A stretch of 64,000 bases of DNA from Balanoglossus misakiensis (GCA_040954595.2 CM082590.2:6076001-6140000); one strand, 5' to 3'; positions 3,101 through 42,951 are shown, counted from the stretch's first letter. Translations and numbers: made by a program. Notes: generated by a model not told the origin, from the letters alone.

Positions 3101-6100
3101 TACAAGCTTGGATAAGATTACGGCTTAAAATTACAAGCTTGAATACAGCTTGTGAACCGCCCCAGACAAGCTTGTATAATACACACAGACCAGTGTGTTT
3201 TAGATATATAGAAATTCTTAACACTGGTCCGGGGCCAGGCTAGGTCCCATGCATAGTGTACAAGATCCCTACATTTAATAAAGCATACTTTTTTTTTCCA
3301 AAAATGAGTATATTTCATGGTTACTCAAATCCTACTTCAATATTTTTCTTCTATAAATATCGTCAGTCGATCCTAACGCACAGTCGATCAATGTTATAGC
3401 TGTGAGCTCTATTTCCGGTTATGACACGAAAATAGCGTTGTGCGCATGCGCGAGGTACACCCGCCATATTTTAACGGTTTTCTTGTTGTAAGCGGTCCCA
3501 GTGTTCGTCAGACATGTTTATCATCCACATCCATTCGGAAAGGGCGATTTTATACCATCAGCGATGCTGCCGTTTTGATGAATTGATCGTTAAAAGATAG
3601 GTAAATCTTTCAGCTAGACTTTGCTGCATGTTGTCAGTCGCGTCCGTCCATACGGCATACTGTTCATTGTTGCTGTAATGGGCGCCGGCGAGTCAGTTCA
3701 GTTCCGTTAAAGACTATCTCGCATTTAGTTTTAAACACCAGGCAAATTTACTGTTACTTGTTGTCTGTACTGTTGGATATTGCAACGAAATGAACTATGT
3801 TTGCATTCTTAAAAATCATGAGTGAACGTGTTTAAATATAGAAGCTGATCGTCTTTGTATGTGCATTGAATGGCCAATGATAATTTATTTGACAGTTGTT
3901 TTTCGTAGAGGTACGATATTTCATGGTAAAAACTGCAATTTCTCAATCGTGCTACATCTGGAATGTACACTGAGTCTGAAGCAAAGGCTTTGTCATTGCA
4001 AAATCAACATTATTTGGAAATTCTTAAAGCAATTGTAAACAAAATAACTATCTTAAATCATGAACACCACCTTCGTAAATAGTGTAGGTGGGAAGTTTTT
4101 TAAGATGTAAAAATAACCTTTTATCTAATATTGCTTCATTTATTTTCAAGCAGAGAAAAAGTGTGTTTGTGTGTGTGTGTGTGGGGGGGGGGGGTTCAAT
4201 GGTACCCCTAGTTAATTGGCTTTGCTGCAAACTCACTGCAATGTTCAAATTTCCAAGGTGGCAATCTTGATTGCTGTGAACTCACTGCAGTATTCAAATT
4301 GCTGTGAACTCACTGCAGTATTCAAAATCTTGTTGCTGGAAGTTTGCAGCAAATTTGCAAGTCCCCTAATTTGCATGGTAAAATCAGGACTGTTTGCCAC
4401 TTTGCAGCAGCAGTTTGCAGTGAGTTTGCAGAATCCTGCTGCAGATTTGCGGGAGGAGTTTGCAGCAGGCCCTTTTTAGGTCCCATTGGTATAGGCCTAT
4501 ATACCATGGGACCTTATGGGATCGGTTGCGTCTGTATGTATGGATGGATGTATGTATGTATGTATGTATGGATGTATGTCCGTCCACATCAAAAACTTGA
4601 AAACCGCTGTGCGTATCACCTCAATATTTGGTGTGTAGGTGCAGGCTGGGCTGTAGATGGGAGTTTGTTCAAACGAAGTTGCCAGGCCCAAAAATATGCA
4701 AATTAGCCTGTAAAATGTGAAATTTATCAAAACTCTGAAAGTCAACAACTACTGGTCAGATTGCTTTAAAAATTGGTATGCATGTACCTTATGTCAACCT
4801 CACATCGACCTGTAAGTGTTAAGTTAATATCATGGATTTTTTATTTTTTATGAATTTTTTAGTCTTTTTATTAAATTTATAACTTTACTTATACCTCTAT
4901 GGTTAAGCTATGTCCACGTCTTATTGTGGAATTCTGGTCTGTGCAATAGTCCTGTACAGTGACTGTCTATTGGTAAGTAAGCACAATGCGGCCAAAATAA
5001 AAGGCGAATTTTTGGGCTCACCTGTAACACCTGCTTAACACATTAATTATGTGCAAACCTAATTCCGGGCTAACTAATAGGGCTAGAGGTTTGGTTTTTG
5101 TTGAACATGAACCAGTATAGGGTCAAAATTTCTTGCCCAAATTTTGCATGACCTCAGGTGACCTTTGACCTACTTTACCATATCTTGGCATCCAGAGCAG
5201 GTACAGACTTGGCGTTTGGAGGGTTGGGACTAACATAATAAAGCCAAATTATGGGTCACCTGTGACACCTGCATATCTCATTAATTATGTGCATACCTAA
5301 TTCCAGACTAACCAATAGGGCTATAGGTTTGGTTTTTGTTGAACATGGACCAGTATAGGGTCAAAATTTCTTGCCCAAATTTTGCATGACCTCAGGTGAC
5401 CTTTGACCTACTTTTCCATATCTTGGCATCCAGAGCAGATATGCTTTTTGCTATGTTGCTATGTTCTATGTTGGCTTGGGCCCGCTATTGCTGCTTGCAG
5501 CTATATTTTTTCTTTAAAAGCACATGCCAGATTGCTTTGCAATTTGACAGTTTATTGGGCATGTTCCTTGTTAATGTTGTTACATTCCATATTTCTATAT
5601 CCTACGATCATATCTGCTTGCAATGTCGCCTGTAATTTTTATTCTGGTGTGTCACTGTTTCCGCATAATCCTCAAATGGGACCACAGTGTCCTTGACGCT
5701 ATTTTTTTTCGTTAGGGTTACCATATCATCGATGCAAAATGTTTATACAATGTGATGTAACAGTGCACTTTCTTGGTGTTTGTGATTTTGTTTATTCATT
5801 ATCGAAGATCAGTTCAAATACTGAAGAATTTTATATTTGACGGAATAATTAAAAAATAACAATTGTATGTTTCACTGAATGTTATAGGATCTCATTAATG
5901 CCGCTGAGAATGGTGATGTTGCAAGGATTCAATCGTTGATAACTGATGGGTACGATGTCAATGCAAAGGGTGAATACAAAGGCTGGGTAAGTATTTGCAC
6001 TGCCTCACTCAACATTTCACACGTACAACCAAGTCACACAGGTAACGAATCTGAAGCGGCAAACGTCTTGACCTTGACTTTATTGATGAACACAAACCTT

Positions 6101-9100
6101 TCCTGTGTTTGATATACCACCTGAATGCATTTGAAATAGAAAACGTGTCAAAAAATAAAGCTTGTTTCCTCCTTTGTTTCTCTTATATCAATTTGAGGTT
6201 ACAAAGAAAAATTTGAAACCGAAACGAATAAGAACATAGTGTTGGATGAAATGTTCAATTATCTGTATATTGTGATCAGTAACAGTCTGTGGCGCGGTTG
6301 TTGACAATTCTAGATGGATGCAAATGTCATAATAAATGAAAGTGTTTACAAAAAAATTAAAACCCCAAAAGCGACACAACATAGAGATTAAAAATCCCAC
6401 GTCGTAAGTCAATCTGGAATTCAGGTAAATATGGTCATGAAAAGATTGCCGTTGATTGCCCTTATAAACAAAAAGTGCGGATTTCTTTAGTCTGTGGTGT
6501 TTGTATTACAAGTGTATTCTTCAGGCGTGATTTGAATCTTTGAGGTGGGGCAGCTGTTGATTGATTGTAATATTTATTTCCTCTGTCTCTTCGATGGATA
6601 TCTTAGCTGTAGAAATTACTTGAGTGAATAAACACACATGATTGGAGATGAAAGTGTTACTGTACCTCAATGGACATAGAACAATGCCAGAGTAAGGACA
6701 TAGTGCTGGTCTATGGGGAATACAGGAGAATATCAGAGTCGTGACAAGGCCAGGCTGAAATGTTTCATTTGCGAACACTCAAAGAATATGTGGAATCTGT
6801 GTCATTGAAGGCTGAAGAGTTGCCATTTGGACGAAATCTTTATTTGTGAAGGAAACTAGTGATTGCATTTGCCCCATGCATTATGTGCCATTGTAAGTTT
6901 AGGGACCGTCTCAGATTGTCACAAAACTATCTGGTTAAATAGGATGTAGAATTAGGCGGTGTCTTTACTATGGCTGATTCTTGGCTTTTTTGTTCGCATA
7001 GGGGCCGTCCACCCGAGAACCGCCAAGACAGAGAACAGAACAGTCAAAATGATCACCACAGCTAAAGACAACACCTAACTCTACATCTGATTTTAATCAG
7101 ATTGGTCACATAAATTCAACAAACAAAGTTCTTTTGTTTATTAGAAGGGCGAATTCAATTTGTTTAGTGAACTCCACTTTCACACTTATTTGCGCGACCA
7201 CAATTTTCCATTTATGTTTTTTGTTAAATTCAGTGAACCAGGCATATGTGATTTCAGTTCCATTCAATGGATACTACAAACGCTTTTTTTTAAAGACAAA
7301 TTTGAGAGAAATGTCCAGACTGGTTTAGACAATTATTTTTCTGATGTTTCCTAGCAACATTAAATAATTATAACATTGATGTACCGTACGTACCAACGCT
7401 AGGTCCATAGCAGGCTATTCCTAAATATTAACTTACACCAACAGAGAAACAGGGGATTGTGTGTGTCGGGTGTATCACGTCCGCCATGTTTATCTGTTAG
7501 AGTACTTGGTGTGATTGAAAATTTGAACATATCAATGTAATTTATGAAATGATATTAAGGCCTGTTGCACCTATGAGTGTGCATAAACATGTATAGTGCG
7601 CTAAGTTATATCATAATTTTATAGTGTTACACTTGTTAGAAAAATCTATAGGGCACGTTATAAAATGTTCTCTGGAACAATAGTGTTTTGGTCTGAAACA
7701 ACTATAGATGCTACACACATTTAACTCATAATTTCAGTCAACACTTCCAGTTACAAATCGATTCCAGTGAAATTTTAGCCATGTAACCTTACAAGTCCAA
7801 CATTGGAACATACCTTGTGTTCATTTTAATTCAAATGAATTTGTCAATTTCAGTCTGGATACACAGCATTGCATGTAGCAGCCAGGGAAAATAAACTGGA
7901 AGCGGCACAAGTGTTGATCGACCATGGAGCTGACGTCAATGCTAAGAATGAGGTAAGTGGCTTTACATGCTCACTCACCAATAGCCCAAACGGCCAAAAA
8001 GGTGACATTGTACTTATATTTTGTAGTGTTGACGACCTTCGGGATGTCAATCACGAAACTAGTGTTACTGCAATAAACTGACACACATAATAGGATTATG
8101 AAGAGTATGAAAGAGTTTGAGGGAGAGTTTTTGGACCGTGGCTATACCTGCGGCCAAGTTAAATTCTTATCTCTTTTGAGACCAACAAATTCACTTTTGA
8201 ATATCATACCACTATAAAGCAATATTTTATTAAAGCATCGAGTAATTCGAGAGGTTGGGATCAGGGTGTTCATATCGAAATGCGTAATTAGGTTTTTCGA
8301 TAAATAATCTACCAATAGTTAACTTTCTGACTGGAAAGTTAGGGACCTAACCATGAACTATTGCTACATGCACGATGACACATTTATTTTATATTTAAAC
8401 AAAGTGTAGTGTAATAGCTGTCAGTAACAACGGCGAAGCGAAATAAAGCTCCGAAAATAAATAAATATAAATTGTAGGGGTGCCATGTATCCTGCACAAC
8501 AGGCCGGGGGGGGGGGGGGGGTTCTCCCATAGGAATGTGTACAGGTTATGTGCCACCCAGAAGGGTCACTTTTCAACGGAAAAATCCCAAAACTTGGGAT
8601 TACTAGCTTTTCAACCGAAAATCTACAAAGTGGGATTCATTCATAAACCGTCATCATGCAATTACCTTTATGGAACTGACTCCAAAGAAAGGTCATTCTC
8701 AATGGCCAGTCCTCACAATCCGTCGACGTCGCTGCCAGGCACACGAAGGGCGCCACAAGCGGCGACGTTGTCTCCGATGCTCGATTCTTGTGGGTTCACC
8801 GCTCGTGGCGCACTTCATGTGGCTATGCCGTCGAATGACAGAGAGAGAGGTCTGGCTGGCGAGACTAAAAAACATTGTCTGGCTGAAGTCTACCATAATC
8901 ATTTGAACGTCAATAGTGGTTCCGCATATTTCTTACTTTTCATTCATAATTGGCGTTCTTTGATTGGCTAATTCCAATGCACTTTTAAGGGGTAATGAAA
9001 CTGCTGTCTAGGCTTTTATAATATTTAGATCATTGTCAGTTTGAGGGTATTGTACAGAGGGCATCTTCAAATGAAAACAACACACGCAAGTATCATAAAT

Positions 9101-12100
9101 GTCAAGTAAAAGAATACCTGTGATGTTAATGTACCCTCAAAGGACTCTGCCCTATCACCACATCATGCATTCATGTCCATTACGTGGGGGACTGGGATGT
9201 ATCCTACTTTTAATTTATCCCCCCCCCCCAAAAAAAAAAAAAAGTGTCGGCAAAACATGTTGTGCCATCTCACAAATTAATGTTCAGAATATGTATAACA
9301 GTGCATGCTTAATGAAACATTGCATGTTCCATTTTACGCTTATAGTCAGGGATGCTCAGTGACACATTTTTGTTGTATTCCCACAGAATGGTAGGGCACC
9401 GTTACACCATGCTGCATGGAAAGGCCATGGTGACGTGGTGAGACTTCTACTGCAATCCAATGCCAGCGTTGATGTGCAGACCAACGTAAGTTAATGTAAT
9501 CACACTAATTCTATTCTACACTCACACATCAGTTGACACGGTTTATTATCAATAACACATATTTTTGTACATAGGTAAATACAAATAAATAGTTAACGAC
9601 TATTCCTCTGCCTTATTCCCAACAACCCAGACTTTACAACCTATTTTTAACAATGACTCGTTAATTATGGATTGTTGCAGCATGATTTTAAAAAAGAAAT
9701 CAATCATTCAGAGCAAGAAGTAATGTTTGTTTTATTGAATCAGCAAAGAGTGTTGTTTATTGTGTGGAATGTGAGATCAAGATCAGCAGATTTATATTGT
9801 TGTAAATATAAATGTGTATTGTAATATAGGTAAAATAAATGAGAGAACCTTCTACTGATAAAATCATGAAGGAAATCCTCTATTCCAGTTCTGACCAATA
9901 AATATATAGCCTGTCACACCGCATAAAAAAAACTGGTTATAAAACGGAAGCTCTCATCGCGCTGCGCTTGTGTGCATTGTTTGTCGGAAAAAAATTGCCC
10001 ACAAATCCCTGAAATTCTATTTTTAGAATTATTTTTTGAATGAACAAAGCAGCCCACTGTAGCATAGACTGGGCAGGACAGCAACTGAAGATCCTAGTAG
10101 GTCGAGGTGACTGCAGTGGGGTTTGCGCTGGTATGGGAGGACGTGTATCATCCATGCAGAGCGCTCGACGCGACGACCACTCAAGCTAGAGAAGCCAGCC
10201 TTGCTAAGACTCAAATGTGCATTAACCCGGCCCTGCATTGCATTGAGCTTGGCACGTCGGTTACATTCCGCTAATAAACCTTATCACACTGTTGTCCGAT
10301 TCCACGTATTTAGTCAGTCAGCTTGTTGTAGAGATGACTGCAACAGGTGGTACAGGCGCTTGAATCGCACCATTCTTGACACGAGTATATTGACTGAGCC
10401 CTATACATGTATAGTGAGCCCTATGCGTAACTGTTTATCTGTTCACAAATGCTCAATATAAGCCTATAATAAGTTTCGCGATGTTGGCTAAACAGCCGTG
10501 GACACTTGCCATAACACGGTAGGTTGATGTCTTGAAAAATTATTCTGTACTTTGCATTGAGGCAAGGAAAAATTTCAGGGGGATTAAACCTGACAGTTTA
10601 TTTCTCTGTGTTTGTACGAAGAAATGAAATCATCTAGTGTAGGCGTTTCCGGGTAAAGTTTATTGTTACCGTAAAGGGCGTATTACACAAATGGGCGTCC
10701 AGCGTAGATTTTGGGAAAGCAAAACACGTTCCGAATCTTCCGTTGTACGAGGAAAGTGGAATTAAATTTCAGAAAATCCAACCTTTTCGGAGTTGGATCT
10801 TCAGTAGCTGTGGAAATGCAGCTGTTCCATCAGGGGGGATGAACTATAAATTCCCCGCATCTCCCCCCCCCCCCCCTCCGGCGGAACAGCTGCGTTTCCA
10901 CAGCTATGTCTTCAGTTGATAAGTCCAGATTGCTGGCTGTTGGGAAGCCCTACAAGTTCAACAGTACGCAATGTTCATGTCAGAACTTGGCTCGCCTTTT
11001 GTCACGTGTTGCTATGGTCACGTCTAATTTTATTTTAAACCTTCCCGCCACATGTTGACGCAATTTATGACTGTAAGTAATACTGAAAATCACACCATCC
11101 CTGCGTTTCATCAGACATTATCTGTTTCCTGATGGGCGCCTGTCACTTGCCTACTCCAAAGATGTTTGTCAAAACCCTGAAACAAACTTTCTGTTTGGCA
11201 GCCATAAAGCCAATGCAAACTTGACATTCAGATGTGTATGAGTCTACATGTACATACGGTCATAACTCTGGCTTCGCTGGAGCATTTGCTGCTTTGAGTT
11301 CATGCCGAGTGCTGAGTTCTGTGTTGGGTTGTGTCGTATGTTTGTGTGTACCAATGCATTAATTAGATGACTTTGGTTGCGCTAAAGGTTCAGAGCCAGC
11401 AGATACATTTTTCAACACATTACACACTCGGTGCGTTGCATCCGTCATTTGAGCGTGCAAGAGTCCATGGAGACGGCTGAACGCTGTTCCCTTCACCCCT
11501 TGCATGATATTTCTGGACCACTTCTGCATCGCTTTTTGTCTCAAGTCGGCCATCTTTGCCCGGCGCAGATTTGTCTATGGTATTTGCCAGACCCTCTATT
11601 TGCAGTGCCCAACGGAAGAAGCAAAGGGCTCTGGATAACCGAGACTACTTGCCTGACAGACCTCGCTATCCGTTGACGTCACGCACAGGCACACGAAGGG
11701 CGCCACAAGCGGCGACGTTGTCTCCGATGCTCGATTCTTGTGGCTTCACCGCTTGTGGCGCACTTCGTGTGGCTATGCCATCGAATGACAGAGAGAGAGG
11801 TCTGGCCGGCGAGACTAAAAAAAGTTGTCTGGCTGAAGTCCACCATAATCAGTTGAATGTCAATAGTGGTTCAACATATTTCTTACCTTTCATTCATAAT
11901 TGGCGTTCTTTGATTGGCTAATTCCAATGCTCTTTTAAGGGGTAATGAAACTGCTGTCTAGGCTTTTAGGATATTTAGGTCAGTCAGTTTCAGGTATTGT
12001 ACAGAGGGCATCTTCAAATAAAAACAACAGACGCTAGTATCATAAATCTCAAGTAAAAGAATACCTTTGATGTTAATGTACCCTCAAAGGACAGAGCCCT

Positions 12101-12706
12101 ATCACCACATCATGCATTCATGTCCATTACGTGGGGCACTGGGATGTATCCTACTATTAATTTATCCCCCCCCCAAAAAAAAAAAAGAAAAAAGAAAAAA
12201 AAAGTGTCGGCAAAACATGTTGTGCCATCTCACAAATGAATGTTTCAGAATATGTATAACAGTGCATGCTTAATGAAACATTGCGTGTTCCATTTTACGC
12301 TTATAGTCAGGAATTTTCAGTGACACCTTTTTGTTGTATTCCCACAGGGTGGTTGGGTACCGTTACACTATGCAGCATGGAATGGCTCTGGTGACGTGGT
12401 GAGACTTCTACTGCAATCCAATGCCAGCATCGATGTGCAGAATAATGTAAGTTAATGTAATCACACTAATTCTATTCTATACTCACACATCAGTTGACAC
12501 GTTTTTATTATATTTAAATCATTGTCAGTTTGAGGTATTGTACAGAGGGCATCTTCAAATGAAAACAACACACGCGTGTATCATAAATCTCAAGTCAAAG
12601 AATTCCTGTGATGTTGATGTACCCTCAAAGGACACTGCCCTATCACCACATCATGCATTCATGTCCATTACGTGGGGGACTGGGATGTATCCTACTATTA
12701 ATTAAC

Positions 12707-12737
<31 letters not shown>

Positions 12738-14979
12738 AAAACTTTCGGCAAAACATGTTGTGCCATCTCACAAATGAATGTTTCAGAATGTGTGTAGCAG
12801 TGCATGCTTAAAGGTATACAGTCACCTCCAACTTACATACGCCCATATATGGCTGAAATGACGTATTTGGGCGTTCTAAAGAACCTATGGTGGCGCTCTT
12901 TCTTTCGCATGTGCCACCCACTGAAAATCTGTGATTGGCTAGATCTCAATTTGCCATTGATGACATGAGTATATCGCGTAATCCCTATATAGTGTGACCT
13001 AGGCTACCAGTTCACGATTCAAACAATGCTCAATCCAAATTGAAGGCTTAAATAACCGTAGAAACTTGCCATGAGGTCGGCCTATGGCTTGATAAATTAT
13101 TATGTATTTTGCATTTAGGATGGGTAAAATTTCAGGGGGATTAAACCGGGCAGTTTCTTTCTCTGTGTTTCTAAGAAGACATGAAATCATCTAGTGTAGG
13201 TGTTTCCGGGTACAGTTTGTTGTTACCGTAAAGGGCGTATTATGCAAATGGACGGAAGCTAGTGAAAAGCATAGATTTTTTAAAACATTCCACATCTTCC
13301 GTTGCATGAGGAAAGAGGAATTAAACTAAGTGAAAATTTCTGAATATCCAATCTTTTTCGGAGATGGGTCTTCAGTTGATAAGTCTAGATTGCTGGCTGC
13401 CGGGAAGCCGTAACATTCACCAGTATGATCGCAATGTTCATGTCAGAACTTGGCTTGCCTTTGCCACGTATTGCTTCGGTCATGTCTAATTTTATTTTAA
13501 ATACCGTCCCACCACATGTTGTCGAAGTTGATGACTGTGTAGGTAATAGTGAAAATCCCACTGTCCCCACGTTTAACGAGATGTAATTTGTTTCCTGATG
13601 CGCGCCTGTCACTTGCCTACTCCAAAGATATTTGTCAAAACCCTGAAACAAACTTTCTGTTTGGCAGCCATAAAGCCAATGCAAACTTGACATTCAGATG
13701 TGTATGAGTATACATGTACATACGGTCATAACTCTGGCTTCGCTGGAGCATTTGCTGCTTTCAGAGATGTTTTCTTGGTATTACTCGATCTTTCCGCAGC
13801 ATTTGACACTGTGAACCATACCATTTTACTCAATCGCTTAAGAGACCGCTTCGGTCTCTCAGATACTGTTCTCATGTGGTTTAAGTCATACCTTTCCAAT
13901 CGTAGTCAGTGTGTACTTGTAAATTCCACCCAATCACCTTTCTATCCGCTCGACACTGGGGTACCACAGGGATCAGTTCTTGGTCCCATACTTTTCAATA
14001 TGTACACGTCTCCATTAGGTGAATTAGTTCAAAGTCATGGTTGTCTTTATAGTTTTTATGCAGATGACTCTTCACTTTATATGTCTTTTAGTAAAGACAA
14101 CGCAGCAAGAACTGTTTCAAATCTTGAACTTTGTATTTCTGATGTTAGGTTTTGGATGTCTGAAAACTTCTTGTGCTTAAACGATGATAAGACTGAATTT
14201 GTTATTTTCTCTGGTATTTTGGGTGATCTGTCTGCTAGAGGGATTTCAGAAATTCGTGTTGGCGATTCTCTGATTCCCGTCCATTGTCAGGCTAAGAGCC
14301 TTGGAGTGATCCTTGACTCTTGTCTGACAATGAAGCCACATATTGGACAGATCTGCCGCTCTGCCACTTTTCATTTACGTCGCATTGCGCTTATCCGCAA
14401 ATATTTATCTCATTCAGCTACAGAGCAATTAGTTCATGCATTCATTACGTCTCGAATTGATTCATGTAATTCACTTTTATTTGGGCTCCCGAAGTATTCA
14501 ATCAACCGTATCCAACGCGTTCAGAATATTGCTGCTAGAATTGTAACTCGTTCTAAAATCACCTGTCACATCACTCCAATTTTGTATCAGTTGCACTGGC
14601 TACCTGTTACAGAGCGTATTGTTTTTAAGATGTTAGTTCTCATTTTTAAATCCATTCATAAACTTGGTCCAATCTATCTTTCTAGCATGACTAATATATA
14701 TGTTCCATGTCGCAATTTAAGGTCAGCTGATCAGTTCAAACTCTGCCCTGTTCGATCACGCACCAAGAGTTATGGTGATCGTGCTTTTACTGTTGCTGCT
14801 CCAATTCTTTGGAATAATCTTCCACTCACCATTCGCCAGGCACCAGACTTATCTGTTTTTAAATCAAATGTTAAAACTTTACTTTTTAAATCTGTTTTTT
14901 AGCCATTTTGTTGTATTGTACTTTTGCTTTAAGCGTCATTGATCACATTTTTTTGTGGATACTGACGCTATACAAATAA

Positions 14980-15018
<39 letters not shown>

Positions 15019-18000
15019 TTCATGCCGAGTGCTGAGTTCTGTGTTGGGTTGTGTCGTATGTTTGTGTGTACCGATGCATTAATTGGATGACTTTGGTTGG
15101 GCTAAAGGTTCAGAGCCAGCAGATGCAGTTTTCAACACACTCGGTGCTTTGCATCATGTCCGTCATTTGAGCGTGCAAGAGTCCATCGAGACGGTTGAAC
15201 GCTTGCATGATATTTCTGGATATTTCAATTGACACGGACACAACGACTTTACATATTAAACCTAACCATTTTGGGCGACTTGGAAGCTGCGATACATCGG
15301 TGGGTTAATGGAAAAAACGCGCAACCAAAAAGAAATTCAGTCTCTGATAGAATGTCAGATTTGCTGAGATACCTCAAACGTTTCACTCATCAAGACTTCT
15401 GCGCCCACATATCAGGTGCTGCATAATTCATACTGTTTGAGAAAGACTAGGTTTTCAGCAATGAAGTCCAAACTGATAATTCCTCTAACATGGTTTAACT
15501 CTGTTGTTGAAACATTCAATATATTCCAAACACAATGGAAGAGATTAAACATTACTTGGTCGTTATACGTGGAAATATATGTTCTATTCTTTGTATTGCA
15601 TAATCCGTTTTGACTAGTGACATCTCTAATTGCTACAAAAACAACAGTGCAACGCGTATATGCAAGCACCAAGAAGAAGACCACTGGTTCACCAAAGAAT
15701 AACGGAGACATTGTCTCAAACTCACTAGAAAAAAAACATAGCGAAATTTTTGTGAGGCTTTTGCGTCAACAGAGCGAGAGAAATTGGATTAACTGAATGT
15801 ACAACAAAAATTGATGAATTCGCAGGTAAACAAACCCTCAAACACATATCTCTCAAGGCGGGAATTTAGATGTTCTTACAAAACTACACGTAATTGCACT
15901 ATTTTTCTGATACGTCATAACGATGATAGCAGACAACTCAGCACATGCTGTTAAAATTGAAAGTAAACGTTTAACCCTGATACAAAGTTGGATTCCTTCA
16001 TAAACCGTCATCTGAACCATTACAAAACTGACTCAGTCTAAAGAAATGTTCTTCTCGCTGGCGAGACCTCGCTTTCAGTCGACGCCGCGAAGTGAAGTGC
16101 GCCTCAAGCGGCGAGGCCGTCTTCGCCGCTCAATTCTCCCGACCTCGCTGCTCGTGGCGCACTTCGTGTGGCTATGCCGTCGAATGACAGAGAGAGAAGT
16201 CTGGCTGGCGAGACTAAAAAAAGTTGTCTGGCTGAAGTCCACCATAATCATTTGAATGTCAATAGTGGTTCTGCATATTTCTTACCTTTCATTCATAATT
16301 GGCGTTCTTTGATTGGCTAATTCCAATGCTCTATTAAGGGGTAATGAAACTGCTGTCTAGGCTTTTATAATATTTAGATCATTGTCAGTTTGAGTTATTG
16401 TACAGAGGGCATCTTCAAATGAAAACAACACACGCGCGTATCATAAATCTCAAGTAAAAGAATACTAATTTGTGATGTTAATGTACCCTCAAAGGACAGA
16501 GCCCTGTCACAACAACATGCATTCATGTCCATTACGTGGGGGACTGGCATGTATCCTACTATTAATTCCCCCCCCCCCCCCCCCAAAAAAAAAAAAAAAA
16601 AAAAAAAAAGTGTCGGCAAAACATGTTGTGCCGTCTCACAAATGAATGTTCAGAATGTGTGTAACAGTGAATGCTTACTGAAACATTGCGTCAAGAATAT
16701 AGTCAGAGATTTTCAGTGTCATATTTTTGTTGTATTCCCACAGGAAGGTTGGGTACCGTTACACTATGCAGCAGCCTGTGGCCATGGTGACGTGGTGACA
16801 CTTCTACTGCAATCCAATGCCAGCGTTGATGTGCAGACCAACGTAAGTTAATGTAATCACACTAATTCTATTCTACACTCACACATCAGCTGACACGTTT
16901 TGTTATCAATATCACACATATTTGAACATAGGTAAATAAAAATAAATAGTTAAAGCCTATCCCTCTGCCTTATTCCCAACGACCCAGACTTTACAACATA
17001 TTTTAACAATGACAGCCTGTCTTGTATAATTATACAGTGTTTACACATGATTAAAAAAAGAAATCAATCATTCAGAGCAGGAAGTGTTGTTTGTTTTTGT
17101 TGAATGTGAGATCAAGATCAGCAGATTTATATTATTGTAAATATAAATGTATATTGTTTAATTAAAGATTGTTTAAACATTTAATATTATAATTTATATA
17201 AGGCATGTGTATAATCTCATGAAAAGGCAATAGTAGAAAAGAGTATTTTAGCAAATCTCAAAGATTTCCTGGGAAGGAACAGATGCGTACAAATGTGCGC
17301 ACTTTACAAGTTTACATTCTACGTGTGATACAGGCAAGTTGTTTTCTTTTCAAAATCAAAACGGTGGCACCCCTTCCGGGCACAAAAGTACCTACTCGAT
17401 AGGGCACTTCTGACACCCTACTCCGAGAGAACCCCCCCCCCCCGGCAGAGAAAAATCAAATCTCTAACAAAACTATCAACAAATCAAGGAAAACGCGGAA
17501 TTCCAGTGTCTCACCGGAACAGGAAATGGAGACACTGAACATAGAGAAAACCAAAATGCTGGAAAAACTCGAACGCGTGGAGCGAATGATCACAACGCAA
17601 CCGTGACCAGACCTCCGGATACGGAGAAAACATCCGCTCATTACTCCGTGCCCCATTTAATAAACATGGCCTCAGACGAGAAGGGCGTCTATCACCTATT
17701 TCGCACAGGCAACCTATGGTCACAGTGCCACCAGGCGGTCGTGATTGTGCAACACGTTTGACAAAGGCTAGTACACGTCATAACTAAGTCTTGTAAAAGC
17801 GTTTGTACAAAATCTGCAAATATAAATGCTTCAACCCACAAACCTTCAGTTCTGCTTTCTTGCTATACTTGCTCTTCAATATTAATAAATCTATGTTTAC
17901 CAGACCTGAACTGCATTTCACCAATTAAGAAGATAACCAAAAAAGCACAAGAAAAAATTAAGGAGCTTTGAGATGTTATGGCAAGGTTGAGACGGATAAG

Positions 18001-21000
18001 GGCTTATTTTTTACAAACCATTCCAGAGAAAGTGTCACATATTCTAATCCTAACATAGGGAGAATCCCACTTAATGTATGCAATGCAATTTCAGTTATTG
18101 AGGGTTTCACCCAAGACACCTTTCATTGGCCTAGAATTTTTGCCATGATTTATGGTTGAGATAAACTCCGCCCTCACCTCGGACTCAAGCTCGCTGAGCT
18201 GGCTCTCATGATTCTCCCCGTTGATTTGTCTGAAGATACCACGATAGAAAACTTTAGAACAACGGAGAAAACATTCTAGACTTGCTATGCTTTTAAAATT
18301 AATGTACGACTTGTAGCGATAGATAAAGGCAAGCTTATGAAATGCCCTTATAGATACACACAACATTTTGTATCAGGTTGTCATGATCAAGACAGACTCA
18401 GGAAAAGGTCAACTCCCCCCTGAAATATCAAAGACTTAATTAATTTAAACTCAGGCGACCTTTACTTCTAAAAATAATTTCGATCACTCTCACATTCGAG
18501 ATATTGTGTTTCAAACTTATTGGTTGTTCATTGCCTATAGTCCCGAAGACGGACACAAATTAGCACCTATGGCATTGTCAATCCAAACATGACCCTACAT
18601 GTGCAATGCCCGTACAATACCCGTCACTCAGGTTTTAACTAAACTCTTTGAATAATCACAGCGATTAAATTGTTACCCTGAAACTTTGCCAAAAACAGTT
18701 TGACCGCGCTAGTTGTTCGTTGATCATAATCCTAAAGATAGCAAACAAATAAGACTTGATGAAAACTGCATTACTTCACTTACAAGTGACTGACGCCAAA
18801 GTAAAATTGGCTGTTGCAGGACGCCACTAGCGGTGAAGTAAGGTAGAATGGTAGTCGCTGAAGTAGATCCCCGGCGCGCTTTACACAGTGAAGTGTGAGG
18901 CTATCCGTTACATTTGTTGTATTCTCTCGTATATTGACAGTCGTCGTCCATGTGTTTCCGAAGAGAGTTGAAACATAGTTTCGTTTGGTGATTTATTGTC
19001 ATTTAGTGGAATCGGTGACCACCGTACACCTGATTTTGCCTGAAATTCGCTTAAAATATGACGGTCCGGGCGACTTTTTGATTTGCAATGTGGAGACAAC
19101 TGACTCTTTCTGTTTAAGTTTCACACGCAGGCAAGAATTTGGTGTCATTCCTGAATTTTTCGCGTACATCCGCGAAATTCCAACGTTTATCACCCAGTTT
19201 TCGGTTGATATTATCGGGTACTTCAGGTGGATGGTTATCTGCTGACATAGTGGTAAAATATCCGGCATTTACACATAAGGCGAATTTATGTAGCAATATT
19301 CTAAACTACCAACCCGAAACAATTTTGCTTCTCTGATGTAAAGGTTGTTGTACACATAAGCCATTGATCATCACAACTGTCATGGTGTCCCATTGAAAAG
19401 TTTATGACTAGAGATATGAAAGGTATTGTAATAATAAATAACAAAACCAACAGTGTTTTTTATTTAATTTGCATAATTACGTACATTTTCAAATAAACCC
19501 GAAAAGTAACTGTGTTGCTGATTACGATACATAAAAATTCCACATTCATTAACTAGTTTTGCAGTGTTAATGTCTGATATGTCTTTGTATTTTACAGGAA
19601 GGTGACACACCTATACACCTGGCAGCAATGAGGGGTCAGGAAGGAGCAGCACTGTTATTACTGAAAGCCAAATGCTCTGTCAACATACAAAACAAGGTAA
19701 GTTAGAACCGGCCTCATTGCACAAGGTGATGTAAGCGTTATAGACTGAGTTTTTTGGTGGCTTTACTTTGGGGACAAGTTTTCGTGTAAAGGTATTGTGT
19801 GTGTTAGTATGTGCGTGTGTTGTGTGTGTGGCGCAGAAACGTTTGAGGATTAGAACAAAACAATTTATTGGGTTCAATTTGCATTCTTCCCACCTGCCCC
19901 CGTTGAAGTTATTTTGAAAAATATGCCTAAAATGTCTGATAACAAAACAATGTGTTTTTATTTTGACAATATTGACGAGGAAGTAATTTGAGAATCGCGT
20001 AAGTTTAGGGTGAAGCAGCAGCGGTTCATTGTTCATCGTGAGCACTTCCTGTAAACGGTGAGATAGATCCCTGGCGCGGTTTACACAGTGAAGCGTGGGA
20101 CTACCCGTCGCGTTTGCTTTATTCTCCTGTCTATACAGTCGCTGGCCGAGAATTTCTGGGGAGAGTGGAAACATTACTAATTTCGTTTGGTGATTTCCTG
20201 TCATTTAGTGGAAACTGTGACCACAGTGGAACTGTCTGGGTAGTTTGGTCCTTAGCTGTAGTGTTAAGCTCAACTCCCTTTTCTCTCTTCTGACGAGGGA
20301 TTTGATATGTTGAGGATTTTACCCGAAATTTGCTTTAAATATGGCGGACCGGGGCGACTTATTAATTTGCATTGTGGACGTAACTGACTCTTCCTGTTTA
20401 AGTTTCGCACGTAGGCAAGAATTTTTTTCTCTTTCTGGAAATATTCACGTACATTCGCGAAATTCCAACGTTTATCCCGTCGGGTACATCAGGTGGATGG
20501 TCATTGGCCGTGAAAGTACATAAGATTATTCTGACTCCCCAACATACTGGCTGACTTTGTGGAAATGATTTTTGTTTTGTATCTATTCAATAGCGTTGAA
20601 GTTGGAGACAATATAGCTTTATTTAAACATCCAAACCACGTGTACAGTATATACCAGCAGGGTTTTGTCATTTTATTACCGTGGTTTATTCATAAATAGG
20701 TAATTTGGTAACTTTTGACACTTTAAAAGAAATTTGTGAAATGCTCCAAATATTTGTCGGTCGGGCCTATTTAATTTATATTTCTATTGATGTAATGAAG
20801 GTGTATACAGTTAAGAGTCATGACATTTAGATTCTTGAACCGGAAAACTGAATCCAAAATTGTGTCAAAAGCAAATTTCAATGTCGTGAGAACAGGAACC
20901 TTTACATGATGCATTATTAAATACTACTGAAGCTGTGGAATCGGTTATCAATGGTTGATTAGTGTTATTCTAGGATTGACTCATTATGCAAACTTTGTAA

Positions 21001-24000
21001 AACTTCACAATGATTTTGACGTTACCTCAGGGTCACACCAAAATTGTGTCAATAGACTCAAAGCCTGGCGCTGGGTTAGATTTAATAAAGGCATGAATTA
21101 CTGATGAACCGCACTTAATTCTTTCCCCTCATGTTCCCTTTTGAATAAAAATTGTAAAAATTTGTTTCAAATGTGGAATGTGAAAACTGCATCGAGTGTG
21201 TTGGGCGAAATTTACCACGGATTCTGTTGGACATTGTCTCACTGTTGTTGTTTTTATCAGCCTCTATATCATTTCGAGGTTAGTATGCTGACATTGTTTC
21301 AGAGTCATTGAAATCCTATTCCCACCTCCATAACATGTAAACAAAATGAAATTCCTTCATACTTTGATAACGACACATATGTTAACACAATATTGCTCAT
21401 GTGACTTCCCTAATGGTAGAGGACCCACTGCCGCTTAAGATTGGGCTCTCCAATCAAAGAATCACGGGTCCAAACCTTTCCACAGGGGTGGTGTTCGTGT
21501 TCTTGAGCAAGAAGATATCCTTCTAGTTGCTTCTCCCAACACAGGAGTAAAAGGGAAGGACTTCAGAGATTATGATTAGTGGTGTGTTTGGCTCGATAAC
21601 GTTAATTGTGGCTGCCAAGTAGGTATGCTGACATTGTTGATTTATAGTCAAGTGATATTAGATCTCGAAACAAAACACTCGTCATATATATCTCCACAGA
21701 GTCCTATCATGTCAGGGCATACTTATGTATAAAACGAAAACCTTTGCGATTTTGATCGCCACATTGTCGTCAAATATTTTATTGCTACAAGGGTATTGCT
21801 AGAATAAAAACGATAAATACCCACGCAGATCACTCAAAAATGGCCAAATGCACTTGTATCATCTTCGGGTTCTTTCATTCTGCTGGAAATTTCGAACTTG
21901 TCAGATTCAAAAAACTTATATTTGTTGTAGTTGTCGCAGACAGAGTAAAGCACATTGATTAAAGGACAGTTTGTTGTAATAAGTATCGAGGTCCAACTTG
22001 TACATTTTAGACACATCAACTGTTTCAAGATTTTAGAGTACCGGTACTAGTAAATATTGCACAATAACAGAATGTCATGAATTCTGCACATGACATATGA
22101 TACAGACCTTAGTGATGTTTAAGAAGGATGCGATTTGTTCTACAGCTGTAGTTTTCATGAGTAAAGCGATCGTGAAATTTAGTCGAACATTTTGCTTCAC
22201 GGGTCATGGATGTCTGACATGTTGTTCAATGACAGAGGGAATAGTTTACAATGTACCGAACTGAACTCACTAGATGCAACATTTACTGCACATGGTGCAC
22301 GGTGACCGTTTTTAAGCCTAGCCAGTTTAAAAGTTTCTCATTCATATATGGATCACAATCGACATGTTTTAGGTATTCACTATTCTCGAATGCTAGATCA
22401 CAGGCAAAGTGCCTCTGTCACAGGGCATATATACATTCATTTACGCCACCTACGATCGATGATTGTCACATTATGTTTCTTCCGATCCTGGTTGCTTATA
22501 GTGCATCTCCCTTTTGCCGTTGGTGGCGGCATTGAAGGATAAAAGACTATCCGCCAGCCGACAGTGAGACTTTACGTAAACTGAAACTGAGGAAAGCACC
22601 GGATCACAGGGATTGTGTTTGCATTGCATCAACGATCAGGCGCAAATTTGAGTTTCTTCTGATTATGGCTACTTAGTACAACACCCTTAGTCGTTGGCAG
22701 CGCTATTTGAGGATAAAATGTTATTTGAAGCCTCTAGACATGTAGACTGAAAGCGAGAAAAGCATCAGATAGGACAGCGACATTCTTACCGATCGATATG
22801 AAATATTTTTTTTATTTCAGATAAAAGTAACGGAATTATCATTGAGTTGCCATCATTTCTTAAACACTTTGTCTAGAAGTTTGCTCTCAGGCCCATGTGA
22901 CCACTGGAAGCTGACCGTGGATATCTGTAAATTTATTATTAGTTTCATTAAAAGAAGGTCATTTCCACCACTCTGCCAATAACACTTATGTTCCATGTGT
23001 TCCATATTATTAAAGAATCGTGCATTCACGTTCTAGTCTTCATTTCCCGTATCACATCGAAAATATCATCCAACCACATTTTTCAGGACCCGCAACAAAT
23101 CCCGATCTAAATATCAGCTACTGGAAAGCCCAACACATTAACACAGATTCTGCATGTGGCCATTAAAACTCTGTGTCTTCATTTTGACAGGATGGCGACA
23201 CTCCTTTGCACAATGCAGCAAGAAAGGATCGTGTGAATATAGTGAGGTTACTGTTGGAATACAAGGCTGATGTCAACATACAAAACAAAGCAAGTAGTAT
23301 TTTTGTAATCTGTATTTATCATTTGAATCAGCATGCTCTTGAGAGGTTGTAACTTGTTCCAACTTTGTACGCAATGTCTGATGCAGGTTTTTTTTATCTA
23401 TCATTTGAATCAGCAAGCTCTTGTGAGATTTGTAACTTGTTCAAAGGTTTTTGCAAAGTTTGATACACATTTTGAACAATTGCTTGAGAGCAATTGTATG
23501 AAGCTTGAATCAAAGATGCCCTTCACACAGTTTGTATGAAGCCTGAACTGGGATTGAAGCAAATATCTATGTGAAGTTTGTCTCAAGTTTTGATTATTTT
23601 GGGGAGATCTGGAATACGTTCCACTCCTAGGTGTGGTTACTTTTCATCTCTCTTCTTTGTACATTTTTATTTCTTTTAAGTTTCTGTACTTTCACTTTTA
23701 ATATATCAGAGATTTCCCCCGTCCATACCCACAAATTCCTTATCGGTGAACAAAGCTAATGTGAAAGGATTGTTGGCAGTTTTAGAAATATCCAACTAGG
23801 GTGCAATTCGGAGACTTAATCATGTAAAATTTTACTATCGGCTAATGTACATTTTCAACACAACACCTGACGATGATTTAATTTACTAAATATCATTTGA
23901 AGACAAAATTTATCTTGATAATTTGTTTTTTTTGAAAAGGATATATGCTTTAAATGCCGCCAACAAAACCATGACAAAGTGTGTCCCCTTTTAAACATAC

Positions 24001-27000
24001 ATTCAGGGTAGCACACTTGCATCACTTCAAGCTCCTTAAACAATGACAACTCATCCCAGTAATAAGCCTATAATAAATTTCGCGATGTTGGCTAAACAGC
24101 CGTGGACACTTGCCATAACACGGTCGGTCGATGTCTTGAAAAATTATTCTGTATTTTGTAAAAAAGGCAAGGAACAATTTCAAGGGATTAAACCTGACAG
24201 TTTATTTCTCTGTGTTTGTACGAAGACATGAAATCATCTAGTGTAGGCGTTTCCTGGTAAAGTGTATTGTTACCGTAAAGGGCGTATTACGCAAATGGGC
24301 GTCCAGCGTAGATTTTTGGAAAGCAAAACACGTTCCGAATCTTCTGTTGCACGAGGAAAGTGGAATTATTTTGTGAAAATCCAACTTTTTCGGAGTTGGA
24401 TCTTCAGTAGCTGTGGAAATGCAGCTGTTCCACTGGGAGGGGGGGGGAGATACTAAATCCCCGCATCTCCCCCCCCCCCCCGGCGGAACAGCTGCGTTTC
24501 CATGTCTTCACTTCATAAGTCCAGATTCCTGGCTGTTGGGAAGCCCTACAAGTTCAACAGTACGATCGCAATGTTCCTGTCAGAATTTGGCTTGCCTTTG
24601 CCACGTGTTGCCATAGTTACGCCTAATTTTATTTTAAATACCTTCCCACCACATGTTGTCGCAATTTATGACTGTAGGTAATATTGAAAATCACAACATC
24701 CCTGCATTTCATGAGACATAATTAGTTTCCAGATGTGCGCCTGTCACTTGCCTACTCCATAGATATTTGTCAAAACCCTGAAACAAACTTTCTGGTTGGC
24801 AGCCATAAAGCCAATGCAAACTTGACATTCAGATGTGTTTGCGTATACATGTACATAACAGTCATAACTCTGGCTTCGCTGGAGCATTTGCTGCTTTCAG
24901 TTCATGCCGAGTGCTGAGTTCTGTGTTGGGTTGTGTCGTATGTTTGTGTGTACCGATGCATTAATTACTTAGATGACTTTGGTTGGGCTAAAGGTTCAGA
25001 GCGAGCAGATGCAGTTTTCAACACATTACACACTCGGTGCTTTGCATCCGTCATTTGAGCGTGCAAGAGTCCATGGAGACAGCTGAACGCTGTTCCCTCC
25101 ACCCCTTGCATGATATTTCTGGATATTTCAATTGACACGGACACAGCGACTTTACATATCAAACCCAACTATTTTGGGCGACTTGGAAGCTGAGGTACAT
25201 CAGTGGGTTAATGGAAAAAACGTGCAACCAAAAAGAAATTCAGTCTCTGATAGAATGTCAGATTTGCTGAGATCCCTCAAACCTTTCACCCATCAAGACT
25301 TCTGCGCCCACATATCAGGTGATGCATAATTCATACTGTTTGAGAAAGACTAGGTTTTCAGCAATGAAGTCCAAACTGATAATTCCTCTAACATGGTTTT
25401 ACTCTGTTGTTGAAACATTAAACATATTTCAAACACAATGGAAGAGATTAAACATTACTTGGTCGTTATCCATGGAAATATATGTTCTTGTTATTGTATT
25501 GCATCCGCGATTTGAATTAGTGACATCTCTAATTGCTACATAAAAAATCGCGTCAAGGACACGGTGGTCCCATTGAGTGATTACACAAGAAAAAGTCTAC
25601 ACTGGAGTACATGGCCATATACAGACAGACAGACACACACACACATAGCGAGAGATCAATGGGCAAACACTGACTGACCCATAAGCTGCCAATAGCATAT
25701 GTACTGTACATACACTAAATAGAACAGCTGGCCTCTTTAAAACTTAGTCAGTTATGTAATCATTCAGGAATTTGCTGTGTTTATATGAATCACAGAGGGG
25801 AGTTCCTGCCTAATTAAAACAACTCAATAAAGTAAATACACACCACTTTGCAAAGCAATCTGACCAGTAGTTCTGGAGTTACTGAGTTTTGCCCAAATTC
25901 ACATTTCCCCAGCTAATTTGCATATTTTGGCAATGGCAACTTCATTTGAACAAACTCCCATCTACAGCCCAGCCTGCATCAGCACACCTAATATCAAGGT
26001 GATACACGCAGCGGTTTTCACGTTTTTGATGTGGACGGACATACAGACATACATACATCCATACCTACAGACGCAACCAATCCCATAAGGTCCCATGGTA
26101 TATACAAATGGGACCCCAAAGCAGTGCAACGCGTATAGGCAAGCACCAAGAAGAAAACCACTGGTTCACCAAAGAATAACAGAGACATTGTCTCTAACTC
26201 ACTAGAAAAAAAAGAGAATAAAACATGGCGAAATTTTTGTGAGGCTTATGCGTCAACAGAGCGAGAGAAATTGGATTAACCGAATGTACAACAAAAATAC
26301 ATATTGATGAATTCCCAGGTAAACAAACCCTCAAACACATCTCTCTCACGGCGGGAATTTAGATGTTCTTACAAAACTACACGTAATTGCACTGTTTTTC
26401 TGATACGTCATAACGATGATAGCAGACAACACAGCACATGTTGAGCATTTGGCAATGTTTAAAACGAAAGCGAACGTGAAACCCTGATATATAAAGTGGG
26501 ATTCCTTCATAAACAGTCATCTGAACCATTACGAAACTGAGATATTGTGTTTTAAACTTATTGGTTGTTCGTTGCCGATAGTCCCGAAGACGGACACAAA
26601 TTAGCACCTATGGCATTGTCAATCCAAACATGACCCTACATGTGCAATGCCCGTACAATACCCGTCACTCAGGTTTTAACTAAACTCTTTGAAATAATCA
26701 CGGCGATTAAATTGTTACCCTGAAACTTTGCCAAATACAGTTCGACCGCACTAGTTGTTCGTTGATCATAATACTAAAGATAGAAAACAAATAAGACTTG
26801 ATGAAAACTGCATTACTTTACTTCCAAGTGACTGACGCCAAAGTAAAATTGGCTGTTGCAGGGCGCCACTAGCGGTGAAGTAAGGTAGAATGCACGTCTG
26901 AGTATTATATGTAGTCGCTGAAGTAGATCCCTGGCGCGCTTTACACAGTGAAGTGTGAGGCTATCCGTTACATTTGTTCTATTCTCTCGTATATTAACAG

Positions 27001-41800: not shown

Positions 41801-42701
41801 TCAACGTTCGACCACACACAACTTCCATCCCACTTGCAGACACGCGAGTGAAAAACTCACCAAAATGAATAATCGGTGTTTACCATTTATACATTTTGGC
41901 AAGATTTTTACTCTCCTATCTTTCAAACGGGATGGAAGATGTGTGTGGTTGAACGTTGATTCACTATATATCCACATATAGAATAACATAAACGGTGTAT
42001 CAAACATAATTAATGGAAAAAGGGCAGCGAGAGAGTGATTTGTCCTTTTAATTAACCCTAACACTGCTAAATCGGTTGAAACTGGTTTGATTTCCAGGGT
42101 GCCCAGAATCCTGGCTCCCAGGCCTGTTAGACTGCCAAGTGTGTGTTATTCAGTAGGGCCTATACAAGACCCTCAGACCAATACAGTGCAAATTGGTAAG
42201 ATGGCGGCGAGAGAGAGACTTTCTCCATTTAAATTTGAAACACAAATGAAAGTGCAAAGTTACTGAGCAACACCATGTCTTCCTTTTTAGATGATATTGC
42301 TGCTTCGACATTGACGGTAACATCGCCTGCTCCTGCAAGTGGGATATTCCGCGTTGGAGAATCCGTCTCCACCACTTTCACATTGGCATATACAGTAACT
42401 GGAAATGGCGGGTCGCCTCGTGACGTCAAAGTGTACTTCAGCAATGCCGATGGCTCCACGAAATCAACCGAAGTGACCGCGACTGGGAGCAATGCACCTG
42501 GCGGGACAGCAGTAACGGTGTCCGGAAGCTACGCTTATCTAGTCGCGTCACTTACCCTCGACACTACTAACTGCGATGCCTACACCAAAGTCTGTGGTTC
42601 AATCACAGTGACAGATGATGACGTCACCAACAACGTGGCCTGTGCTGGTTTTGGTACCACTGCTGCTCAGGCAGGGACGAAGAACTGCACTGCAGATGCA
42701 G
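38829..42701 (+). CDS. Secreted/cell-surface protein: signal peptide + two tandem ~135-aa Thr/Ala/Gly-rich, 4-Cys beta-sandwich-like (CARDB-like) domains. Model join(38829-38833,39924-39994,40919-41320,42291-42701..); 3' end unresolved
   Basis: ATGGG|gtaggt (phase 2) joined to cacag|G gives MGSLCLPLALVSLLGFLSICQAQIP, a hydrophobic signal peptide. Two phase 1-1 exons of 402 and 411 bp follow, sharing TTFTLAYTVTG, VK.YFSNADGSTKS.EVTA, C.AYTK.C, DDD.TNN.AC and AGTK.C. Confidence 0.8.
39039..39384. mobile_element. Palindromic Kolobok-like MITE (TTAA TSD)
   Basis: TTAA|AGGGACAAAG ... CTTTGTCCCT|TTAA with long internal inverted symmetry. A left fragment also occurs at ~37550-37660. Confidence 0.8.
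40012..40335 (+). mobile_element. 5' fragment of the Helentron-like family
   Basis: AATATAGCTGCAAGCAGCAGTAGCGGGCCC start; 40190-40330 is a reverse-complement match to 5040-5180 and 5280-5420. Confidence 0.55.
40468..40650. mobile_element. Short palindromic MITE
   Basis: ACACATGATGACTGACA...GGCAACAGTGT mirrored by ACACTGTTGCC...TGTCAGTCATCATGTGT. Confidence 0.6.
41669..42047. mobile_element. Second copy of the palindromic TTAA MITE, with a duplicated left tip
   Basis: TTAA|AGGGACAAAG...TTTGTCCTT|TTAA, colinear with 39039-39384. Confidence 0.75.
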
Positions 42702-42951
42702 GTAACGTCTGAATTTATTCAGTGTATGTCCAGCACCAGCAATGATGAAAAATTAAATCCCAAAAACGCACAGAATGGGGAAACATGCTCGTATGTTCCG
42801 GTTTTCTAAAACAGAATATAAAGGCTGATGGCTCAACTAAGTACAAATAACTTTTCTGATTATAGAGAAGAAATAGTACTTTTGGCTCTAAACTGATTTT
42901 CCTGGGGTGAATAATTATGTTTTTGTTGTTGATTGATTGTTTGTTTGTCTG

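Follow-up and report, generated by a model that had tools for sequence, protein, structure and literature searches.

Ankyrin exon cassettes that vary at predicted target-binding positions in a ROCO gene of Balanoglossus misakiensis

A stretch of 64,000 nucleotides of Balanoglossus misakiensis DNA (GCA_040954595.2, CM082590.2:6076001-6140000), referred to here as the window, holds a ROCO gene with three similar ankyrin exons, A, B and C. These exons vary mainly at codons whose counterparts are randomised in designed ankyrin repeat proteins (DARPins), and in another sample the amino-acid-changing alleles at these codons exceed the synonymous rate. The explanation we favour, and consider probable, is that the ankyrin cassettes of a multi-copy ROCO family duplicate by unequal recombination under diversifying selection, and that the protein is a probable cytosolic sensor of non-self, which is to say an immune sensor.

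The exons are found at 9387..9485 (A), 12348..12446 (B) and 16744..16842 (C), all on the plus strand. Each is 99 nt long, in phase 0, open, and bounded by AG and GT, with its splice sites intact. Each encodes one full ankyrin repeat, scoring about 38 bits against Pfam Ank (PF00023, cut-off 21.1), and protein identity among the three is 76-79%. The original prediction had placed and translated the exons in just this way. It had also counted 13/99 nucleotide differences between A and C, 12 of the 13 in amino-acid-changing codons, including whole-codon swaps. We find the same, with the two swaps at codons 11-12 and an identical end of 43 nt.

The cassettes had further been described as near-identical in their introns. 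This is true of the first 55 nt of downstream intron, where A differs from B, and likewise from C, at one position. The upstream flanks are another matter, with 41/658, 59/630 and 63/641 differences for the three pairs (6-10%). The intron cassettes around the exons are about 90-94% alike. They are recent, yet not near-identical throughout.

As proposed, the exons belong to a ROCO gene. From 5888 to 33042, nine exons join into a single open frame of 1314 codons and a stop, in which Roc and COR-A both exceed the Pfam cut-off. This is a kinase-less gene of the ankyrin (ANK), leucine-rich repeat (LRR), ROC and COR type. Its ankyrin array is encoded as one repeat per 99-nt phase-0 exon, and there are seven such exons.

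Variation at the target-binding codons

DARPin libraries randomise ankyrin positions 2, 3, 5, 13, 14 and 33 (PMC1261162, in excerpt), and the ANK-N5C library randomises positions 2, 3, 5, 10, 13 and 33 (PMC4308713, in excerpt). Following the canonical repeat register of alignments, the six DARPin positions correspond to exon codons 33, 1, 3, 11, 12 and 31, and position 10 corresponds to codon 8. Because the DARPin positions are also the most variable ones in all ankyrins, variation there is informative only where it exceeds the neutral rate.

Among A, B and C, amino-acid-changing differences affect ten of the 33 codons: four of the six DARPin codons and 6 of the 27 others. Compared with the flank, where 52/537 alignment columns differ, the 4/6 changed DARPin codons give p=0.02-0.045. 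Including position 10, this becomes 5/7 with p=0.006-0.016. Counted by columns, the exon as a whole also exceeds its flank (21/99 vs 52/537, p=0.0016). From the window copies by themselves, the evidence for selection is suggestive only.

Contigs of three sequencing runs, X1, X2 and X3, provide a second set of variants. The runs stem from one sample and one study, are all labelled 'DNA?', and have gene shares of 0.59, 0.52 and 0.32. At some sites every contig of the runs differs from the window. The runs are probably from another individual or a close relative.

The contigs were aligned on exon A, with 40 of 55 variant rows listed, 36 of which are exonic. More than half of the listed exonic variants (21/36) fall in codons 1, 3, 8, 11 and 12, which are ankyrin positions 3, 5, 10, 13 and 14. 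At 9408, and again at 9418, all three alternative bases are present. No listed variant is found in 17 of the 33 codons, and codons 18-27 and 29-31 have none even at synonymous sites. The correspondence with the DARPin set is not perfect: position 33 has no listed variation, position 2 has only slight variation, and the framework positions 1, 6, 16 and 30 also vary. Upstream, at 9347-9386, there are no listed variants although B and C differ there. This is probably edge clipping, and the stretch is not used as a control.

Counted per opportunity, amino-acid-changing alleles at the DARPin codons number 16/48, against 6/65 for synonymous framework alleles (p=0.0015). With position 10 included, the numbers are 21/56 and 6/64 (p=2e-4). 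If only codons 1-14 are considered, the binding codons still stand out (20/40 against 4/22 synonymous, p=0.013), and framework amino-acid changes number 3/59 there. The excess is present in transitions (9/15 vs 4/29) as well as in transversions (12/41 vs 2/35).

For the 15 further rows a worst case can be calculated. The per-kind counts allow at most 4 transitions among them, in which case the transitions-only test gives p=0.039. If all 15 are put on neutral sites, and these are pooled with the downstream intron, p is 1.9e-4. The target-binding codons are likely under diversifying selection. The clustering at binding-face positions that was originally claimed is borne out, in the window copies and in the variants of the other sample. 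The claim of diversifying selection survives for the other sample, where binding-face alleles exceed the synonymous rate, but the window copies alone do not demonstrate it.

Duplication, splicing and number of copies

A self-BLAST of the first 34 kb provides a map of the duplications, with all units on the plus strand. The cassette A unit, intron-exon-intron, is 8624..9822. It matches the cassette C unit at 15981..17157 (83% over 1230 columns) and the cassette B unit at 11657..12511 (91%). At 12503..12811 there is a remnant without an exon, which is a fourth copy of the upstream intron part. It ends about 70 nt before the expected exon position, after which a high-copy element follows, and many contigs have loose ends at 12808-12810.

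Further downstream, a segment of the intron between exons E and F (24062..27101) is a paralogue of introns B-C and C-D. Here the paralogue of 13049-16031 is joined directly to that of 18498-19041, without the 2466-nt piece 16032-18497 that contains exon C. We read the segment and the remnant as footprints of turnover, in which exons were gained or lost, because the remnant has no exon and the paralogous intron lacks the exon C piece. The introns share enough sequence for unequal crossing-over, which is a likely mechanism. Searches with nhmmer and tblastn on both strands of the window found no further exon copies, inverted or dead.

These introns also contain mobile elements. In intron B-C there is a 5'-truncated long interspersed nuclear element (LINE) at 13764..15014 (plus strand), with a reverse transcriptase (PF00078, 77 bits), a poly-(ATT) tail and a 5-nt target duplication. 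It is not present in the paralogous intron at about 24900. The LINE looks young, and an X3 contig that aligns to it for about 1 kb shows 3 differences. Intron E-F holds an insertion at 27100-27562 resembling a miniature inverted-repeat transposable element; its terminal inverted repeats are perfect over 47 nt, and further inside it has long inverted arms.

The original prediction depended on the exons being spliced in, and several X3 contigs agree with this. In contig 17, an A-type exon runs at its end straight into the start of a second one, with 44 and 80 letters either side. No such joint of A-type exons is listed in X1 or X2. Comparison by eye shows an e2-type end before an A-type exon in one X3 contig (27/28 nt match). 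In other X3 contigs an A-type exon is followed by the start of a D-type exon (26/30) or of a diverged terminal-type one. We infer that X3 is RNA although it is labelled 'DNA?', and the cassette-type exons are likely spliced in, to one another and to neighbouring exon types. The four junction types in X3 are a pattern that would be expected from skipping, or from paralogues with other exon sets. In X3 the introns on either side of exon A lack cover, as do a number of other intron bins, but intron 1 is covered in part; the gaps are not used as evidence.

Two X3 contigs that cross the variable region have residue combinations unlike A, B and C at codons 3, 8, 11 and 12, and it is likely that variants beyond these three are expressed. 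Codons 1-14 are covered in full by each of six X1 contigs, all of them different, and 42 X1 contigs carry the codon-9 difference. Another two contigs, from X2, differ at only 3-4 sites and probably represent additional variants. This likely reflects more than three loci, or more than one individual. Exons e1 and e2 (region 5800-8147) match many variant contigs in X1-X3, up to 16 at 5942, and may be multi-copy and variable too.

The proposed explanation and its rivals

The exons being in phase 0, a cassette could be added, lost or skipped in frame. Shared intron sequence would be the substrate for adding and removing cassettes, and likely drives both the change in copy number and the uniform framework. 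Selection would then favour new residues on the concave face, which we also think likely. By analogy with other ROCO proteins, a ligand on the ankyrin array would control the ROC-COR GTPase switch, with a signal leaving via the C-terminal domain. It is likely that the family is multi-copy, and likely that selection rather than local mutation is behind the pattern. An immune role is probable by analogy, given the evolutionary signature, the brown-algal ROCOs, the fungal NLR ankyrins and a relative with death-effector domains.

A bolder version is possible, and we hold it only tentatively. This would be a germline 'natural DARPin library', a family of ROCO sensors that swaps ankyrin cassettes between genes and combines them by exon gain, loss and skipping, giving a deuterostome invertebrate individual repertoires of cytosolic pathogen receptors. 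Somatic diversification is very improbable.

A number of observations weigh against the proposed explanation. Clustering alone is no proof, given how variable these positions are in ankyrins generally. The pairwise ratios of nonsynonymous to synonymous change (dN/dS, by NG86) are 0.78 for A/B, 2.38 for A/C and 0.85 for B/C, and none is significant. The original prediction had quoted A/C as evidence of selection, which is the best pair of three, with a Fisher p of 0.31, and it does not serve as such. Counted by events and not by columns, the exon is not more diverged than its flank (11/99 vs 39/537, p=0.14). Framework codons are not significantly below neutral in the window (5/26 changed, p=0.28-0.53), nor are framework amino-acid changes significantly rarer than synonymous ones in the runs (7/170 vs 6/64, p=0.11).

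The run test counts alleles in the context of exon A, which are not independent events, and multi-base codon swaps are counted repeatedly. Position 10 joined the set of sites after the data had been inspected. The exon-only test is no longer significant if more than about 8 of the 15 further rows are synonymous (5 for the DARPin set), and the transversion-only test is lost if 3 of them are. Behind the runs is a single sample from a single study, and the short contigs have no link to a particular gene. Splicing is argued from a run whose label does not say RNA. Contig depths are 25-90 for exon variants, near multiples of 23, and 138-518 for long, mainly intronic X1 contigs. They hint at several copies of the gene, although copy number cannot be read from depth, and the sample may have been pooled. 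No mosaicism among A, B and C is detectable with three sequences (runs test p=0.35).

Much of this would also fit neutral growth of the repeat under relaxed constraint, with changes tolerated at solvent-exposed ankyrin positions. The non-significant dN/dS of the window, below 1 in two of the three pairs, is in its favour, as is the finding that exon events do not exceed flank events, and positions 2, 3, 5, 13, 14 and 33 are the most variable ones in all ankyrins (PMC1261162, in excerpt). Relaxed constraint, however, caps at the neutral rate. The density of alleles on the binding face (21/56) is about four times that of synonymous alleles (6/64), and likewise about four times that of synonymous and downstream intron alleles together (10/181, worst case 25/181). 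In addition, the lack of even synonymous listed variants in codons 18-27 and 29-31 does not fit, and we regard this explanation as unlikely. A local mutational process without selection is more doubtful still. In such a process, diverged ankyrin donors would pass on short tracts by conversion, or multi-base repair would introduce errors, mainly within the exon's 5' half. Swaps of whole codons and of doublets are indeed frequent, and synonymous alleles are somewhat denser in codons 1-14 (4/22) than in codons 15-33 (2/42), with p=0.17. Yet codons 2, 5 and 6 are interleaved in this same stretch without a listed variant, and framework amino-acid changes there (3/59) compare poorly with those at binding codons (20/40). 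A tract process is blind to codon function unless it is filtered by selection.

It could also be that the diversifying selection is real, without there being a repertoire for recognising pathogens. The gene might be escaping a pathogen antagonist, or following a fast-evolving self partner, as in allorecognition, transposon conflict or other intragenomic conflict. The sequence signature would be identical, and allorecognition genes are found among the fungal NLRs whose repeats are diversified (PMC4986451, in excerpt). Many coexisting variants in one sample and one gene nevertheless fit a broadened repertoire better than serial escape. By analogy, the ROCO precedents (brown algae, and MASL1 and LRRK2, which are induced on infection according to excerpts of PMC11378527) and the death-effector relative point to immunity. 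We think such a non-repertoire role rather unlikely.

It is hardly credible that the three copies arose in the assembly, as an artefact, or that they are dead pseudo-exons. The region is rich in repeats and the copies were taken from the assembly, not from reads. Their flanks, however, differ by 6-10%, the neighbouring insertions differ, and in none of the three is a splice site damaged or the frame interrupted. Bases characteristic of A, B and C also turn up in another sample, where exons are found joined to one another.

Known systems, the gene and its surroundings

Repeat-based variable receptors already known include the variable lymphocyte receptors of lampreys, which are built from LRRs. 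The closest comparison may be made with the LRR-ROC-COR genes of the brown algae Ectocarpus and Saccharina, which shuffle LRRs encoded one per exon (PMC3341825, PMC11378527). As far as the excerpts of these papers go, there is much in common: a kinase-less core, N-terminal repeats with one repeat per exon of equal phase, birth and death of exons, and diversifying selection on the binding face. For that last point, the evidence here consists of allele counts (p=2e-4 to 0.04) and not of a codon model. The immune role is only a proposal in both.

The brown-algal exons are 72-nt phase-2 (type I) LRR exons, whereas here they are 99-nt phase-0 ankyrin exons, with the LRRs inside one large exon. The excerpts also describe inverted or inactivated intronic exon copies; the window has none, only exon-less remnants. 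As to the exchange of exons between loci, known from the algae, one X3 contig here connects an A-type exon with a diverged terminal one, and A, B and C show no mosaic signal. The algal repeat exons are also alternatively spliced; the four junction types of X3 may stem from this or from paralogues that differ in their exons. Finally, the host here is an animal.

Fungal NLRs with ankyrin repeats of high internal conservation, for example Podospora Pa_3_8560, share the high repeat identity (PMC4986451, in excerpt), which is the 76-79% found here. In them, sites under positive selection lie on the face formed by the inner helix and the beta-hairpin, and repeat number changes by recombination, both of which can be likened to what is seen here. 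These proteins carry a STAND NTPase (NACHT or NB-ARC) and C-terminal repeats, against a ROC-COR GTPase and N-terminal repeats here. Every repeat is an intron-flanked exon here, and the passages of PMC4986451 concerned mention no introns. The gene is a ROCO by membership; it resembles the fungal NLR ankyrin arrays, yet is not an NLR.

With DARPins and ANK-N5C the gene shares a constant framework and variation at positions 3, 5, 13 and 14 (DARPin) and 10 (ANK-N5C), going by excerpts of PMC1261162 and PMC4308713. The present repeats are natural and germline-encoded, do not vary at position 33 among the listed variants, and do vary at framework positions 1, 6, 16 and 30. Within open-access PubMed Central papers and bioRxiv, no animal ROCO with diversifying ankyrin exon cassettes was found.

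Should the proposed explanation be true, then to the known LRR systems (brown-algal ROCOs) and fungal NLR repeats would be added a cytosolic, ankyrin-based animal repertoire, located in the sister group of chordates plus echinoderms. Kinase-less invertebrate ROCO proteins would gain a testable role as sensors, and natural selection would have reached the same paratope positions as DARPin design. If the cassette-swapping library were also real, marine invertebrates would have a class of diversified innate receptors that has gone unrecognised.

The best of 52 protein matches are to hemichordates, namely Ptychodera (55% and 54%), Glandiceps (50%) and Saccoglossus (46%). They place the gene in an invertebrate ROCO group separate from the brown-algal genes. 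Relatives with the ANK-LRR-ROC-COR arrangement are P0001 and P0002 (Ptychodera), P0003 (Glandiceps), P0004 and P0053 (Saccoglossus), P0058 (Tubulanus) and P0056 (Hydractinia). Core identity to invertebrate relatives is 32-55%, and most carry N-terminal ankyrins. For the wider relatives, 14 matches were scanned and 10 looked up. Nemertean and hydrozoan relatives have ankyrins, and the number of N-terminal ankyrins varies widely.

Repeat identity is 24-55% within Saccoglossus P0004 (7 repeats) and at most 39% within the nemertean P0058 (17 picked repeats). In these two relatives the repeats are thus old and mutually unlike, and among the genes compared a recent, homogeneous and hypervariable cassette is seen here only. 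A protein search with exon C and its in-frame flank gave no match, and a search for shorter relatives sharing the C-terminal region found none. The N-terminus of Saccoglossus P0053 has death-effector domains, fibronectin type III domains and ankyrins. P0003, P0064 and partly P0067 have a Rho-like small GTPase at the N-terminus. The unusual N-termini of P0053 and P0003 may be real fusions or gene-model errors.

The remaining exons of the gene are all on the plus strand. Exon e1 (5888..5986) is 99 nt long and in phase 0, and encodes an N-cap-like repeat without its own Pfam match, found by tblastn with e2 (E=0.024). Exons e2 (7854..7952), D (19598..19696) and E (23191..23289) are likewise 99 nt long and in phase 0; it is the 3' end of e2 and the 5' start of D whose types adjoin the A-type exon in X3 contigs. 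Exon E has a predicted GC donor at 23290, a weak site that could favour skipping. Exon F (28273..28314) is a predicted 42-nt exon with the first half of a terminal ankyrin-like repeat. No start-codon exon was identified upstream of e1. The region 3430-3600 is CpG-rich with a donor-like site at about 3600, and is a candidate promoter with a non-coding first exon.

Exon G (29833..33042) is a single exon of 3210 nt that contains an LRR-like region, the ROC GTPase, COR, a Cys/His-rich C-terminal domain and the stop. ROC scores 57.8 bits (PF08477, cut-off 27), directly followed by COR-A with 59.5 bits (cut-off 35.3). Within ROC we located what we take to be the P-loop and G3/G4-like motifs. Before ROC, Pfam LRR_4 (26.3 bits) and LRR_8 (25.7 bits) are just below the cut-off of 27, and the family profile matches LRR proteins across this region, which puts LRRs before ROC, the most frequent layout among ROCO proteins. 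No kinase family is among the 15 Pfam matches, and the frame stops at 33042. The kinase and WD40 after COR that mark the LRRK1/LRRK2 subfamily are thus absent.

The predicted model of exon G has a predicted local distance difference test score of 82 and a predicted template modelling score of 0.83. Its best fold matches are LRRK1, LRRK2 and the Chlorobium Roco, with Roc-COR structures 6hlu and 3dpu. At about 32270-33039, sets of cysteines and histidines are conserved across 35 aligned relatives (C815, C818, C838 and H846; H913, C916, H923 and C1058). This suggests metal binding by COR-B and by an unnamed domain at the C-terminus.

Rfam has no match anywhere in the window. Two similar Thr/Gly-rich, Cys-containing open reading frames of about 150 amino acids, without a Pfam match, lie at 40873-41409 and 42239-42712 on the plus strand. 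They have the look of single-domain exons repeated within a neighbouring gene. On the minus strand, at 43181-44124, two open reading frames without a Pfam match resemble what we take to be the 3' part of another non-LTR (long terminal repeat) retrotransposon. From 52921 to about 62300 there is a 117-bp tandem array, with at least 73 copies in its largest family and without an open reading frame of 90 amino acids or more. The array lies between the two members of a 151-nt inverted pair (51441-51591 and 62297-62447), and is probably a satellite inside a mobile element.

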